Sequence record: OQ411014.1
Origin: Escherichia phage EJP2
Direction: 5' to 3' (one strand)
Length of the DNA: 64,000 bases
Below the pieces are notes generated by a model. The model ran no database searches. It was not told the DNA's origin and saw nothing but the letters and a program-made list of their open reading frames with translations. Positions 7,334 to 44,769 of this stretch are shown piece by piece; position 1 is the first letter of the stretch, and each line of letters begins with the position of its first letter. The position numbers and the translations under genes were made by a program.

Positions 7334-9304
7334 ATGGCAAAGAAACAATCATCTGTCATGGAAGAACATGGAATCCAACAACTAACCGAATATGAACACG
7401 CCCGAATCAGGACAGAAATGTATCTTGGTTCACGTTCTGTGCATGAACAGATGGCTCTTATCTTTGGTGAAACAGGCTATGCAGTACTGAACACTGCTTG
7501 GGTTCCAGCACTACTAACATCTATTCGTGAAGTTCTTGATAACTCCCTTGACGAATTCGTGAAAGCAATGGTGAAAGACCCTGAACTACGCGTGACGTAT
7601 GATGAAGGAACTCTAAGCATCGTGGTTTCCGACAACGGTCGCGGTATTCCAATTGACTACGTACCAGATACGCAAAAGAACTTGTGTACTATGGTAATGA
7701 CTGAAATGAAAACTGGTCGTAACTTCAATGATGACGAACGTGAAAACGTCATTGGTATGAACGGTCTTGGTGGTTCAGTTGTAATGATTGTTAGTGAAAC
7801 TGCTGAACTGGAAATCCATCGTGCTGGTCGTCCATACAAAACCACAAGCAGTAATGATGGTTATGATGGAATGTACAAATTTACACAGAAATTCAGCGAA
7901 GGAACTCACATGTTCCCTGACCTACAAATCAATGAACCAACGATTCGTAAAGTCAAAGCTGATAAGACTGGTACTACAATTCGTTTCAAACTAAGCCCAG
8001 CAGTATTCCCGAACCTAGTACTACCAACTGAACTAATCTATAGTATCCTAAAAGAGATTAGTGCTGCGAACCCTACCTACAAAATCTTCCTGAACGACAA
8101 ACGTATTCAGTCTAAAGGTGGAGTAGAGAAAGGTCTATTTGGTAAAGCTAAACTAATGACCCTAAGTGTGAAAGACCCAGGCTTTGACAGTACTTTTTAC
8201 ATCGTTCCTGATTCAGTAGAAGGACAAAGTACTAATTTCCACATGCATGGTCTAGTAAACAACGCCCCAGCGTTAGAAGGTGGCACTCACCTAGAAACAT
8301 TCAAGAAGTTCTTTGCATTAGGTATTGGGACTTCTCTTGAGAAAGAAGCTAAGCGTCGTAAAGTAAAACTAAAACCCAACCGTTCTGATATTGAAGAAGG
8401 TCTATTGATTTACAATATCACACGTATGAACTCTCCATCGTTCAACTCACAGACTAAGACTAAACTAACGAATGAAAATGTTATTCGTCCTGTACAGCAA
8501 GCTATGAGTACTGAATGGTTTGATGAGTTAGTGAAGAAAAATAAGGAGTGGGTGGATTCAATCTTTACTCGTTGTGCTGAACGTACGAACAAGAAAGATG
8601 CAGATGAAGATCGTCGTCTAGCAAAGAAACTACTAAAAGGTAAAGTAGCTAAACTCCGTGATGCAACTGGTACTGACCGTTCCAAATGTATCCTACTAAT
8701 CGCAGAAGGTGATTCCGCAATTAGTAACATGTCCGGTGCTCGTGATTCTGCGATTCATGGTATTCTTCCGTTGCGTGGTAAAATCATGAACGTGAACGGT
8801 ACTGAGAAAACTAAAGATCTAATGGATAGTGATTCTCTACGTGACATTATGGCATCAATCAACCTAATCCCAGGACAAAAAGCTGTACGTTCAGAACTGA
8901 ACTATGGTAAGCTATATATCTGTGCGGATGAGGATGAGGATGGTAAGAACATTGGTGCACTAGTGTGTAACTTCCTATTCAAATTCTGGCCTGAACTATT
9001 CCAAGACCCAGAAAATCCGTTTGTTTACATCTTCAAAACTCCATTTATTATTTTGGAGAAAGGTAAAGAAAGTCGTTATTTCTATGGTCATAACGTGCAT
9101 GAATTCAACCCTGACGAATGGAAAGGATGGAAAGCAACTCGTGCAAAAGGACTAGGAACACTAGAGAAATCCAACTTCCGTGATGCACTAACCGATGGCG
9201 TAGCAATCGCAATCACTGATGACGGTAACTTAGGTGCAACATTAGACCTCATCTTCAATAAAGGTCGTTCCGATGACCGTAAAGAATGGATGAAGGACGA
9301 GTAA
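7334..9304 (+). CDS. DNA topoisomerase II large subunit (GyrB-like ATPase plus Toprim; T4 gp39/gp60 equivalent as one ORF)
   Basis: N-terminal GHKL ATPase motifs (DNGRGIP, GMNGLGGS) and C-terminal Toprim (LLIAEGDSA); 656 aa. Confidence 0.9.
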   Translation: MAKKQSSVMEEHGIQQLTEYEHARIRTEMYLGSRSVHEQMALIFGETGYAVLNTAWVPALLTSIREVLDNSLDEFVKAMVKDPELRVTYDEGTLSIVVSDNGRGIPIDYVPDTQKNLCTMVMTEMKTGRNFNDDERENVIGMNGLGGSVVMIVSETAELEIHRAGRPYKTTSSNDGYDGMYKFTQKFSEGTHMFPDLQINEPTIRKVKADKTGTTIRFKLSPAVFPNLVLPTELIYSILKEISAANPTYKIFLNDKRIQSKGGVEKGLFGKAKLMTLSVKDPGFDSTFYIVPDSVEGQSTNFHMHGLVNNAPALEGGTHLETFKKFFALGIGTSLEKEAKRRKVKLKPNRSDIEEGLLIYNITRMNSPSFNSQTKTKLTNENVIRPVQQAMSTEWFDELVKKNKEWVDSIFTRCAERTNKKDADEDRRLAKKLLKGKVAKLRDATGTDRSKCILLIAEGDSAISNMSGARDSAIHGILPLRGKIMNVNGTEKTKDLMDSDSLRDIMASINLIPGQKAVRSELNYGKLYICADEDEDGKNIGALVCNFLFKFWPELFQDPENPFVYIFKTPFIILEKGKESRYFYGHNVHEFNPDEWKGWKATRAKGLGTLEKSNFRDALTDGVAIAITDDGNLGATLDLIFNKGRSDDRKEWMKDE

Positions 9305-9377
9305 TTCAGTACTGAACTGTGAGGGGTAAATATCCCTCACAACAGATAGGATATCAAGAAACAAAGAGGCAAAGGAT

Positions 9378-10781
9378 ATGGCTAAAAAGCAAAACGAGAG
9401 TATTTCTAACGCAACCCTAACACTACTGGACTATGTGAGTTCAGAGTACATCAACCAATCATCACTGGAATATGCAATCAGTACTCTAGACCGTGCAATT
9501 CCAGGTATTGATGGACTAAAAGCATCACAACGTAAAGCAATCTTCACTATCAGTAAAGTTAGTGGTGAAATCAAAACTGTATCAGCAGCAGGACGTATGA
9601 TCAGTGATGGCATTTATCTACACGGTGACGCATCTGCATCTGGTACTTTACAGAACCTAGCATCACCAGTAGTGAATAACTACCCACTAATTGGCAAACG
9701 TGGTGGTTTCGGGAACCAAGCGAACCCTGAGCCAGCAAGTGCACGTTATACATATGTAAAGAAAACCAAAGTCACTGAAGCTCTAGTACTGCGTGATATG
9801 GATGTAGTTCCAATGCAAGAGAACTACGATGGTACAACTATGGAACCACGTCACTTCTTACCTATTATTCCTTTGTGTCTATTCGGTAACGATAGTATGT
9901 CTGTAGGTTACAAAAGTATTATTATGCCGTACAAATTAGAAGATATTATTGACAACTGTATTCGAGTAATTGACAATAAGAAGTTAGTTGATATGATGCC
10001 GTACTATGTAAGTGTAGGTGCATCACCGAACGTAACTAAACTTGAAGAACTAAAGTACGAGTTCTATGGTAAAGCTGAAGTTATCGATGCAAGTACTGTA
10101 CGTATCACTGGTTTACCTCCTTATCGTAAGCTAGAAACTTTCGTTGAGAAACTAATCTCTATGTCCGATGATGGTTCTATTCGTGATTATGACGATAACA
10201 GTACTGACTTAGTGAACATTACAGTGAAGCTCCCACGTGGTACTTCTGCAAAATGGACTGAAAAAGATGTAATTGAATATTTTGGCCTATCCAAGAAAGT
10301 AACTGAAAAACTAAACGTTCTAGGTGAAAATGGATTGGTCAAATCGTACACCAATACTTTGGACATTATTCGTGACTTCGTTGATTTCCGTTTCAAGTAC
10401 TATGTAAAACGTTATGAGAAGAAACTGGAAGCAGCAGCCGCAGAAGTTCGATACAAAGCTCTAGTACAGGAATGTTTCCATAATGATATGATTGGTAAAA
10501 TCAAAGGCTTCCAGAACCGTGCTGAACTAGTTGCATTCGTTGAATCACTAAACACTGAAATTGAAGCATCTGATGAAAACATTCAGAGCATTGTGAACTA
10601 TCCATCTTACCGTTGGACTCAAGAGAACTATCAGAAAGTTCTTGAAGAAATCCAACACGCTTTAGGTCTAATGGATGAGTACAATGATTTACTTTCCAAT
10701 CACGATAAGATTTGGGCGATTTACAAAAATGAACTACTAGAACTACGGGCTATGGACTGCACTCCTAAGTCAGAGGACTAA
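9378..10781 (+). CDS. DNA topoisomerase II medium subunit (GyrA-like; T4 gp52 equivalent)
   Basis: AIPGIDGLKASQRK and FLPIIPLCLFGN motifs parallel T4 gp52 / GyrA N-terminal region; 467 aa. Confidence 0.85.
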   Translation: MAKKQNESISNATLTLLDYVSSEYINQSSLEYAISTLDRAIPGIDGLKASQRKAIFTISKVSGEIKTVSAAGRMISDGIYLHGDASASGTLQNLASPVVNNYPLIGKRGGFGNQANPEPASARYTYVKKTKVTEALVLRDMDVVPMQENYDGTTMEPRHFLPIIPLCLFGNDSMSVGYKSIIMPYKLEDIIDNCIRVIDNKKLVDMMPYYVSVGASPNVTKLEELKYEFYGKAEVIDASTVRITGLPPYRKLETFVEKLISMSDDGSIRDYDDNSTDLVNITVKLPRGTSAKWTEKDVIEYFGLSKKVTEKLNVLGENGLVKSYTNTLDIIRDFVDFRFKYYVKRYEKKLEAAAAEVRYKALVQECFHNDMIGKIKGFQNRAELVAFVESLNTEIEASDENIQSIVNYPSYRWTQENYQKVLEEIQHALGLMDEYNDLLSNHDKIWAIYKNELLELRAMDCTPKSED

Positions 10782-32681: not shown

Positions 32682-32754
32682 GCTTGAATAGCTCAGTAGG
32701 TAGAGCAGCGTACTTGTAATACGAAGGTCGTGGGTTCAATTCCTGCTTCAAGCA
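32682..32754 (+). tRNA. tRNA-Thr (anticodon UGU)
   Basis: manual cloverleaf: acceptor GCTTGAA/TTCAAGC, D-arm TAGCTCAGTAGGTAGAGC, anticodon loop CTTGTAA, T-loop GGTTCAATTCC; no encoded CCA. Confidence 0.8.
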
Positions 32755-36742: not shown

Positions 36743-36760
36743 TATATAAAAGGATTTTAT

Positions 36761-37618
36761 ATGCAACCAATAACAGTACTTAGTCTGTTCAATGGAATGT
36801 CAGGCGGGATGCTTGCTTTAAACGAAGCACAAATACCCGTACATAAGTACTATTCATCTGAGATAGATAAGTTCGCAAACGCTGAGTCCCAAGCGAATTT
36901 CCCTGATATAGTCCAGTTGGGTGATGTTACCAAGTGGAAGGAATGGGATATTGAATGGGACAAAATAGATCTACTCATGGGTGGATTTCCATGCCAGGCA
37001 TGGTCTGTGGCTGGTAAACAGGGTGGAACGAACGATCCACGTGGAATGCTATTCCATACTATGGTTGATATCTATCATCATATTAAGGCGTTGAATCCGA
37101 ACTTGAAAGTACTGTTCGAGAACGTCAAGATGAAAGAAGACTTCAAGCAATACATTGATGGTATCTTAGGAATGACACCTAAGATGATCAACTCTCAAAA
37201 CTACACTGCTCACTATCGCCAGCGATATTACTGGTACTCATCTGATAAGTACTTTATCCCGCCTCCTATCATGTCTTCCCCTTCACTGCAATCAATTCTT
37301 GATAGTGATTACACTGATAGAGAGAAATCGTACTGTATAGATGCGAACTATTGGAAGGGTGGAGATCCTAACCAGTACTTCAACAAGTCCAGGCGGCAGA
37401 TGGTGTTCATGGACCCTGATATTGATAGAGAGTACCTTATTGAAAAGGGTATAAACAAGATTGACTATCGTAAGCTAAGTGTAGTAGAATGTTGTCGTTG
37501 TCAGGGAGTGCCGGATGATTACTTTAAAGTGTCCAGCAATACCCAAGCGTACAAGATGTTAGGTAACGGGTGGACTATCCCAGTCATCGCTCACTTATTA
37601 CGTGATATATTCTTTTGA
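36761..37618 (+). CDS. DNA (cytosine-5)-methyltransferase, orphan
   Basis: motif I LFNGMSGG, motif IV GFPCQAWSVAG, motif VI ENV; no adjacent restriction endonuclease candidate. Confidence 0.85.
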   Translation: MQPITVLSLFNGMSGGMLALNEAQIPVHKYYSSEIDKFANAESQANFPDIVQLGDVTKWKEWDIEWDKIDLLMGGFPCQAWSVAGKQGGTNDPRGMLFHTMVDIYHHIKALNPNLKVLFENVKMKEDFKQYIDGILGMTPKMINSQNYTAHYRQRYYWYSSDKYFIPPPIMSSPSLQSILDSDYTDREKSYCIDANYWKGGDPNQYFNKSRRQMVFMDPDIDREYLIEKGINKIDYRKLSVVECCRCQGVPDDYFKVSSNTQAYKMLGNGWTIPVIAHLLRDIFF

Positions 37619-40485: not shown

Positions 40486-40576
<91 letters not shown>

Positions 40577-40689: not shown

Positions 40690-40764
40690 CGGGGTATAGC
40701 TTAATGGATAAAGCAGTAACCTTCTAAGTTATTGATCTAAGTTCGATTCTTAGTATCCCGACCA
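40690..40764 (+). tRNA. tRNA-Arg (anticodon UCU)
   Basis: acceptor CGGGGTA/TATCCCG, anticodon stem GTAAC/GTTAT with loop CTTCTAA, T-arm CTAAG-TTCGATT-CTTAG, encoded CCA. Confidence 0.8.
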
Positions 40765-43101: not shown

Positions 43102-43191
43102 AGAAGGTTGGCAGAGCGGCTAAATGCACTCGCCTACTAAGCGAGCACTCGCTCCGGCGAGTCGAGGGTTCGAATCCCCCACCTTCTGCCA
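43102..43191 (+). tRNA. type II tRNA with apparent ACU anticodon (Ser-like, unusual)
   Basis: acceptor AGAAGGT/ACCTTCT, anticodon stem CTCGC/GCGAG with loop CTACTAA, long variable arm, T-loop GGTTCGAATCC, encoded CCA; anticodon read by hand. Confidence 0.6.
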
Positions 43192-44445: not shown

Positions 44446-44540
<95 letters not shown>

Positions 44541-44695: not shown

Positions 44696-44769
44696 GGCCC
44701 TTTAGCTCAGTTGGTTAGAGCAGAGAACTCATAATTCTTTGGTCACTGGTTCGAGTCCAGTAGGGGCCA
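44696..44769 (+). tRNA. tRNA with CAU anticodon (Met or lysidine-type Ile2)
   Basis: acceptor GGCCCTT/AGGGGCC, D-arm TAGCTCAGTTGGTTAGAGC, anticodon loop CTCATAA, T-arm ACTGG-TTCGAGT-CCAGT; no CCA. Confidence 0.8.

Follow-up and report, generated by a model that had tools for sequence, protein, structure and literature searches.

An orphan, DNMT3-like C5-cytosine methyltransferase gene of the jumbo coliphage EJP2: a probable anti-restriction enzyme without a supported link to hyper-abundant AGTACT palindromes

The methyltransferase gene and its setting

Escherichia phage EJP2 is a published Rak2-like jumbo coliphage, and DNA methylation goes unmentioned in the paper that describes it (PMC10213699). 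We analyzed 64,000 nucleotides (64 kb) of its genome (sequence record OQ411014.1), the whole stretch being referred to here as the window, with positions counted from its first letter. The subject of the analysis is an open reading frame (ORF) for a C5-cytosine DNA methyltransferase (MTase) at positions 36761 to 37618 and its possible relation to the palindrome AGTACT, which is hyper-abundant in the same DNA. The gene and its parts are as follows.

36761..37618, plus strand: C5-cytosine DNA methyltransferase ORF from the ORF listing, ATG start, 285 amino acids (aa) plus stop
36750..36754, plus strand: Shine-Dalgarno sequence AAGGA, 6 nt upstream of the ATG, read from the sequence
36785..36808, plus strand: motif I, LFNGMSGG (aa 9-16), for S-adenosylmethionine (AdoMet) binding, DNMT3-like in the form "VLSLFNGMSGG"
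36983..37015, plus strand: motif IV, GFPCQAWSVAG (aa 75-85), with the catalytic Cys78 (codon 36992-36994)
37118..37126, plus strand: motif VI, ENV (aa 120-122), from the sequence and the family alignment
37217..37234, plus strand: motif VIII, RQRYYW (aa 153-158), from the sequence, the family alignment, and the profile search
37262..37468, plus strand: target-recognition region (TRD), aa 168-236, a conserved block with a very short variable insert
37469..37585, plus strand: motifs IX (RKLSVVEC, aa 237-244) to X (GNGWTIPV, aa 268-275), from alignments

This ORF is a genuine, intact C5-cytosine MTase gene. The initial annotation had recognized the enzyme by motifs I, IV, and VI, and all three are present, together with motifs VIII, IX, and X and with matches to Pfam family PF00145 (E=2.4e-38, 132.8 bits against a cut-off of 22) and NCBIfam TIGR00675 (126.5 bits against a threshold of 100.65). 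The ORF also matches PHROG 116 "DNA methyltransferase" (E=2e-62) and carries the signatures of the C5-MTase class (FxGxG in motif I, PC, ENV, RxR, and GN) with scores above the family thresholds. In an alignment of 63 family members, residues F10, G12, E34, P77, C78, E120, N121, V122, R153, R155, G268, and N269 are invariant, and from the sequence we infer that the enzyme is catalytically active. The gene is already known and annotated: NCBI lists its protein, with 100% identity, as "DNA-cytosine methyltransferase [Escherichia phage EJP2]" on a contig of 349,185 bp. Orphan methylases of this type are widespread in phages.

So far as profile searches can tell, the EJP2 enzyme is an orphan, since no cognate nuclease family was found in its flanks or reported for the window and its neighbors are not conserved. 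The ten flanking ORFs (within ~3 kb) gave no significant Pfam match, and their PHROG matches were either to families of unknown function or absent. A scan of all 116 ORFs of the window gave a single methylase family, and among the best 25 of 39 Pfam families and the best 25 of 62 PADLOC families there was none for a restriction enzyme, Vsr, or TET/JBP. The earlier observation that no endonuclease adjoins the gene thus holds both for the immediate flanks and for the families reported across the window, with the caveat to any orphan call that many restriction endonucleases match no profile. The genes flanking the MTase differ among phages Hallingskeid, 121Q, and RaK2, and two family members of ~52% identity on unrelated metagenomic phage contigs are likewise solitary.

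Family, fold, and distribution

Orthologues with 60-85% identity are present in Erwinia phage Hallingskeid and in 121Q (gp91), PBECO4, GAP32, CBB, XbC2, RaK2, and K64-1, and an MTase orthologue is common to most of the Rak2-like jumbo phages sampled. These belong to a very large and mostly metagenomic family, to which at least 7,843 database proteins match at E<=1e-20 (8,000 candidates scored). At E<=1e-60 the MTase is matched in 117 phage records; these include no orthologue from Salmonella phages PHA46 and Munch, the five "Salmonella" records in the set being other phages. Both are Rak2-like, the topoisomerase II of PHA46 being 75% identical. The stretches sampled were 288000-337158 of PP191103.1 for PHA46 and 100000-130000 of MK268344.1 for Munch, and no MTase match was found in the syntenic 49 kb of PHA46 either, a result that refers to this stretch, as the whole PHA46 and Munch genomes were not scanned for distant C5-MTase paralogues.

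The orthologue of Escherichia phage UE-S1 (ON568341.1, 50728-52608) is a 626-aa ORF interrupted by an intein with Hint and LAGLIDADG homing-endonuclease domains, which sits exactly before the catalytic cysteine of motif IV (CFPAGT...VVHN|CQAWS). Inteins typically occupy conserved functional sites, and we count the position of this one at the catalytic Cys as support for a functional enzyme. In phages A4 and TH47 the tblastn match begins at residue 78, so that an intein is probably present there too.

In fold and profile the EJP2 MTase is of a compact, DNMT3-like type, according to its predicted structure and family alignment. An AlphaFold model built on the family alignment has a mean pLDDT of 92.3, and the 50 best PDB matches to it in Foldseek are without exception DNMT3A, DNMT3B, or DNMT3C catalytic domains, with a TM score of 0.80 over 285 residues at ~25% identity. 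A search with the single sequence gave M.HhaI and the DNMT3A/3B catalytic domains as the best solved relatives, and the family profile ranked DNMT3B first (E=3.9e-35), followed by M.HhaI (8.7e-32), M.HaeIII (3.1e-28), and, at 3e-13, PDB entry 4dkj, which we take to be the CpG methylase M.MpeI. The DNMT3 enzymes are CpG-specific.

The TRD contains a block that is near-invariant across the family, YTDRxKSYCIDANYWKGG..QYFNKSRRQ, and after it comes a variable insert, which ranges from 0 to 90 aa in the 63-member alignment and is minimal in EJP2. Queries with the 81-aa TRD and with the 138-aa C-terminal part found no solved or characterized enzyme with the same TRD, only motifs IX-X being aligned. 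An attempt to read the specificity off the TRD accordingly failed, as it has no sequence similarity to any solved TRD.

Palindrome abundance and the methyltransferase

The enrichment of AGTACT reported in the initial annotation is real and is stronger than first seen. The window contains 230 copies against 21 expected, and the coding sequence contains 202 against 42±6 after synonymous-codon shuffling (z=27), a test in which TGTACA and CGTACG are not enriched. The AGTACT sites occupy all three codon frames and intergenic DNA, the commonest reading frame being AGT-ACT (87/230 sites). From the flanks of these sites it is evident that the enriched unit is an 8-bp palindrome, CAGTACTG, with 78 copies against 1.14±1.04 in dinucleotide-preserving shuffles of the 64 kb, an over-representation of about 100-fold. 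It, too, is found in all frames and in intergenic DNA (for example at 1607, 3717, and 4295, and as far as 63868), it is evenly spread (coefficient of variation of the spacing, 0.82), and its half-sites are also enriched.

The same octamer is enriched 12-104x across seven Rak2-like phages, with values of 52-104x in Hallingskeid, 121Q, UE-S1, and RaK2. The positions of AGTACT sites are conserved only weakly above background relative to the closer relatives (44% and 40% versus 19-20%; 28% versus 18%) and are at background relative to PHA46 (19% versus 18%), which indicates that the sites turn over and that it is their density, not their position, that is maintained. We found no description of AGTACT or CAGTACTG over-representation in phages in the searchable literature.

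The initial annotation had put forward the C5-MTase as a candidate for acting on these sites, citing M.RsaI as a C5 enzyme that targets GTAC. That precedent is mistaken, since M.RsaI forms N4-methylcytosine, GTA(m4C), and M.CviQI forms N6-methyladenine, GT(m6A)C (PMC3287169, PMC6256690), and these known GTAC methylases, neither of which makes 5-methylcytosine (5mC), are of other enzyme classes than the PF00145 C5-MTases. The candidacy is itself unsupported, because the presence of the enzyme does not track the enrichment from phage to phage. AGTACT is enriched 6.1x in PHA46 and 6.5x in Munch, the same as in 121Q and RaK2, so the enzyme is not necessary for the enrichment, these two phages keeping AGTACT at about 6x without an orthologue. 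Nor is it sufficient, as the palindrome is not enriched in phi92, which has a 52% identical MTase (0 copies against 17 expected in 50 kb sampled), in ICP1, which has a family member (7 against 17), or in two metagenomic phage contigs with short-type members (1 against 3.7 and 1 against 2.8). A link between the methylase and AGTACT/GTAC is therefore not supported.

The reading set aside here is that the C5-MTase methylates the cytosine of GTAC/AGTACT or of CAGTACTG, with the palindromes as its substrate in a viral analogue of the cyanobacterial palindrome HIP1. It has in its favor that EJP2, Hallingskeid, 121Q, UE-S1, and RaK2 have both the enzyme and the enrichment, and that an orphan C5-MTase is known to recognize the core of the HIP1 octamer (PMC4390886, PMC6105098). 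Further, CAGTACTG reaches only 12-23x in PHA46 and Munch, which lack the MTase, against 52-104x in the phages with the enzyme, and because of this weaker enrichment in two phages we leave the HIP1-like reading a very slim chance. However, neither AGTACT nor CAGTACTG contains CpG or GpC, for a site of 6-8 bp one would expect a larger protein than a DNMT3-like enzyme of 285 aa with a minimal TRD, and the bisulfite result for RaK2, in the accessible part of its paper, mentions CpG only, although AGTACT occurs about every 400 bp in RaK2 (PMC3622015).

We also considered and rejected a drive by Vsr-type repair. Through Vsr-like repair a C5-MTase is known to be able to make its own target more frequent. 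In EJP2, AGTATT/AATACT, the product of deamination, shows no depletion (82 versus 72), and no Vsr family was reported for the window.

Target specificity and proposed role

We propose that the EJP2 enzyme is an active, solitary, DNMT3-like C5-MTase, probably directed at CpG, that serves in anti-restriction and neither acts on nor explains the AGTACT/CAGTACTG palindromes, and we assign to this reading as a whole a probability of about 0.55. The target of the enzyme would be very short, probably CpG, and would be methylated on phage DNA that has just been replicated, and progeny genomes would then reach the next host already protected against those restriction enzymes that have this dinucleotide in their sites. 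The anti-restriction role is taken from established knowledge of phage orphan methyltransferases.

The specificity is suggested mainly by phage RaK2. Simoliunas et al. (2013, PMC3622015) name two putative MTases of this phage, gp194 and gp447. They make two statements on its DNA, both with data not shown: only methylation-tolerant restriction enzymes cut RaK2 DNA, and bisulfite sequencing revealed methylated CpG in it. We find that gp447 is a 172-aa N6-adenine methylase of family PF05869, while gp194 is the PF00145 orthologue of the EJP2 ORF, being 60% identical with the TRD block conserved. The 5mC in RaK2 is thus attributed to gp194, since it alone among RaK2's own enzymes can make 5mC. The gp194 protein and its orthologues in 121Q (gp91), PBECO4, GAP32, CBB, and Hallingskeid have the same TRD block, and their genes lie in the same syntenic neighborhood, downstream of those for topoisomerase II, the clamp loader, and TelA. 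RaK2 gp194 differs, however, at motif IV, which reads SPC in place of FPC and is followed by an insert of 8 aa. A protein of 285 aa with a minimal TRD would also fit a target of 2-4 bp better than one of 6-8 bp. Taken together, the RaK2 bisulfite result by way of gp194, the DNMT3-type fold, and the small TRD make CpG, or a very short target that contains CpG, the best-supported specificity, although the odds that it is correct are only roughly even, because the RaK2 data are unpublished in detail and the EJP2 and RaK2 enzymes have diverged.

Several points weigh against this proposal. With the RaK2 data "not shown" in the accessible text and gp194 only 60% identical, the target may be narrower than CpG or may differ in EJP2. 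As the TRD is without similarity to solved enzymes, the specificity is not read from the protein itself. There is also a real tension with the composition of the genome, in that CpG palindromes stay strongly avoided in EJP2 (CCGG 0.24x, CGCG 0.29x, GCGC 0), and this persisting avoidance is unexpected if CpG methylation gave broad protection. Contrary to what one would simply expect, PHA46 and Munch, which lack the MTase, avoid CCGG less (0.8-1.0x), and neither dinucleotide nor palindrome-class statistics separate the phages with the MTase from those without, the ranges of rho(CG) overlapping (0.64-0.95 with the enzyme and 0.80-0.89 without). The "MTase-less" status of PHA46 and Munch itself leaves room for distant C5-MTase paralogues, which these phages may have. 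Among the phages compared, it is only in EJP2 that CpG-centered AT-rich palindromes escape avoidance. The literature on the methylomes of Asteriusvirus, 121Q, PBECO4, Sharanji, CBB, EJP2, and Munch yielded nothing beyond the RaK2 statement.

The main rival for the specificity is GpC. A short-target methylase of another kind, specific for GpC or GC[C/T] like the phage TET-associated clades and M.CviPI or for some other motif of 2-3 bp, is unlikely but has to be taken seriously. Another set of phage-specific C5-MTases, which combine a conserved core with a variable TRD insert, methylates GpC (PMC8256090), and this speaks against CpG insofar as the EJP2 family has the same architecture, a conserved block and then an insert of 0-90 aa. 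The GpC odds ratio is also lower in phages with the MTase (0.74-0.90) than in those without it (0.93-0.94). On the other hand, CpG is the dinucleotide named for RaK2 (PMC3622015), no TET/JBP family is among those reported for the window, and TET/JBP are reported to be absent from jumbo phages (PMC7824862). A TET-coupled hypermodification was considered separately and rejected, since neither the flanks nor the reported families of the window include a TET/JBP.

A conventional methylase of a 4-6 bp site such as GGCC or CCGG, guarding against one host restriction enzyme, is a more doubtful alternative to CpG. Database names of the orthologues include "modification methylase HaeIII" and "HpaII", but these labels are automatic transfers from a best hit, and the TRD is unlike that of HaeIII or HhaI, only motifs IX-X aligning, while the profile and the fold are nearer to DNMT3. 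Measured against the synonymous-shuffle null, every GC-only tetramer palindrome but GGCC is depleted (GGCC, 20 versus 25, z=-1.3), yet by base composition GGCC is still at 0.3x.

That the enzyme has no anti-restriction role, being instead a DNMT2-like RNA methylase or an epigenetic timer for replication, packaging, or transcription, is improbable. The extreme site avoidance of EJP2 would make a protective methylase partly redundant, some relatives do without the methylase, and DNMT2/tRNA methylases are among the PDB matches. These matches are, however, much weaker (E about 1e-9 to 1e-19) than those to DNMT3 or HhaI, RaK2 DNA is reported to be methylated and restriction-resistant (PMC3622015), and solitary homologues, of which diverse phages have thousands, match what is usual for orphan anti-restriction enzymes.

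We give scarcely any credence to the last variant, in which the C5-MTase, alone or with the PF05869 adenine methylase, marks CAGTACTG/AGTACT and PHA46 and Munch represent lineages with a decaying octamer, even though, if it were true, the Rak2-like jumbo phages would be the first viruses with a HIP1-like iterated palindrome and self-marking by an orphan methylase. The "Dam"-type PF05869 methylase gp447 of RaK2 (22981-23499 of the sampled RaK2 stretch), which in EJP2 lies outside the window, is an alternative candidate for AGTACT/GTAC.

Site avoidance and other features of the window

In the 301 kb sampled from them, the seven Rak2-like phages, among them PHA46 and Munch without the MTase, have no GCGC site at all (261 expected); in phi92 and ICP1 GCGC does occur. 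Its absence could be an extreme form of restriction avoidance, or self-protection against a phage-encoded nuclease that cuts GCGC. Nearly all 6-bp palindromes with at least 4 G/C have 0 occurrences in the window, AAGCTT and CTTAAG are likewise at 0 against 21 expected, and TTAA (0.22x) and GATC (0.48x) are depleted, GATC being under-represented in all of these Rak2-like genomes. Site avoidance seems to be the main defense of EJP2 against restriction.

The following tRNA genes are predicted in the window.

32682-32754: tRNA Thr(TGT), predicted
40487-40576: tRNA Ser(TGA), predicted
40690-40764: tRNA Arg(TCT), predicted
43102-43191: tRNA Ser(ACT), predicted; the unusual ACT anticodon may be a prediction artefact
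44451-44540: tRNA Ser(GCT), predicted
44696-44769: tRNA Met(CAT), predicted

The tRNAs for AGY-serine and threonine serve the codon families of AGT-ACT, though the Thr(TGT) species could read ACT only by extended wobble. A T4-like replication module at 7334-10778 and in its neighborhood includes the large and small subunits of topoisomerase II, the clamp loader, RNase H, and RecD/Dda-like helicases, and the window also encodes TelA, dihydrofolate reductase (DHFR), an IF3 homologue, peptidyl-tRNA hydrolase, and ADP-ribosylglycohydrolase. It is pure speculation that the type II topoisomerase might read a dyad-symmetric site centered on GTAC.

Significance and comparison with known systems

The main value of the analysis is negative, in that the methylase can now be kept apart from the remarkable sequence statistics of these phages. 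The excess of CAGTACTG and the lack of GCGC have to be explained in some other way, for example by a protein that binds or nicks DNA, by a nuclease that tells self from non-self, or by the adenine methylase. The methylase gene itself is of little import and is unusual only in belonging to a very large family of phage-borne proteins to which the eukaryotic de novo DNMT3 enzymes are the closest solved relatives. Should the CpG specificity prove true, a viral CpG methylase as compact as 285 aa would have some interest as a tool enzyme and for the evolution of DNMT3.

Of the known systems, the DNMT3A/3B/3C catalytic domain is nearest to the EJP2 enzyme, with the same length (~285 aa), the best structural and profile match, and the motif I signature VLSLF(D/N)G. 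It differs in that the EJP2 enzyme, known here from its sequence and a model, is viral and solitary, without PWWP and ADD domains and without a DNMT3L partner, and its TRD loop does not align with DNMT3 in the profile search. M.SssI and M.MpeI are also orphan enzymes with a dinucleotide target, but they are larger (~390-400 aa) and only distantly related, and the likeness is one of proposed chemistry and outcome only. The phage TET-coupled C5-MTases (Burke et al., 2021, PMC8256090) are similarly phage-borne; they adjoin TET/JBP dioxygenases and glycosyltransferases, none of which is reported around the EJP2 gene, and the two are likened by description, not by sequence.

For the palindromes the closest parallel is cyanobacterial HIP1 (GCGATCGC), likewise a hyper-abundant octamer palindrome in coding and non-coding DNA, for which methylation of CGATCG by an orphan C5-MTase at the octamer core has been described (PMC4390886, PMC5861425, PMC6105098). 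The orphan methylases that go with HIP1 are DmtA/M.Ssp6803I and a Dam-like enzyme, and the EJP2-type phages similarly encode orphan C5 and N6-adenine methylases. The essence of the difference is that in HIP1 the methylase targets lie inside the palindrome, whereas in EJP2 the octamer CAGTACTG has no CpG, the probable target, and phages without the enzyme keep the enrichment.

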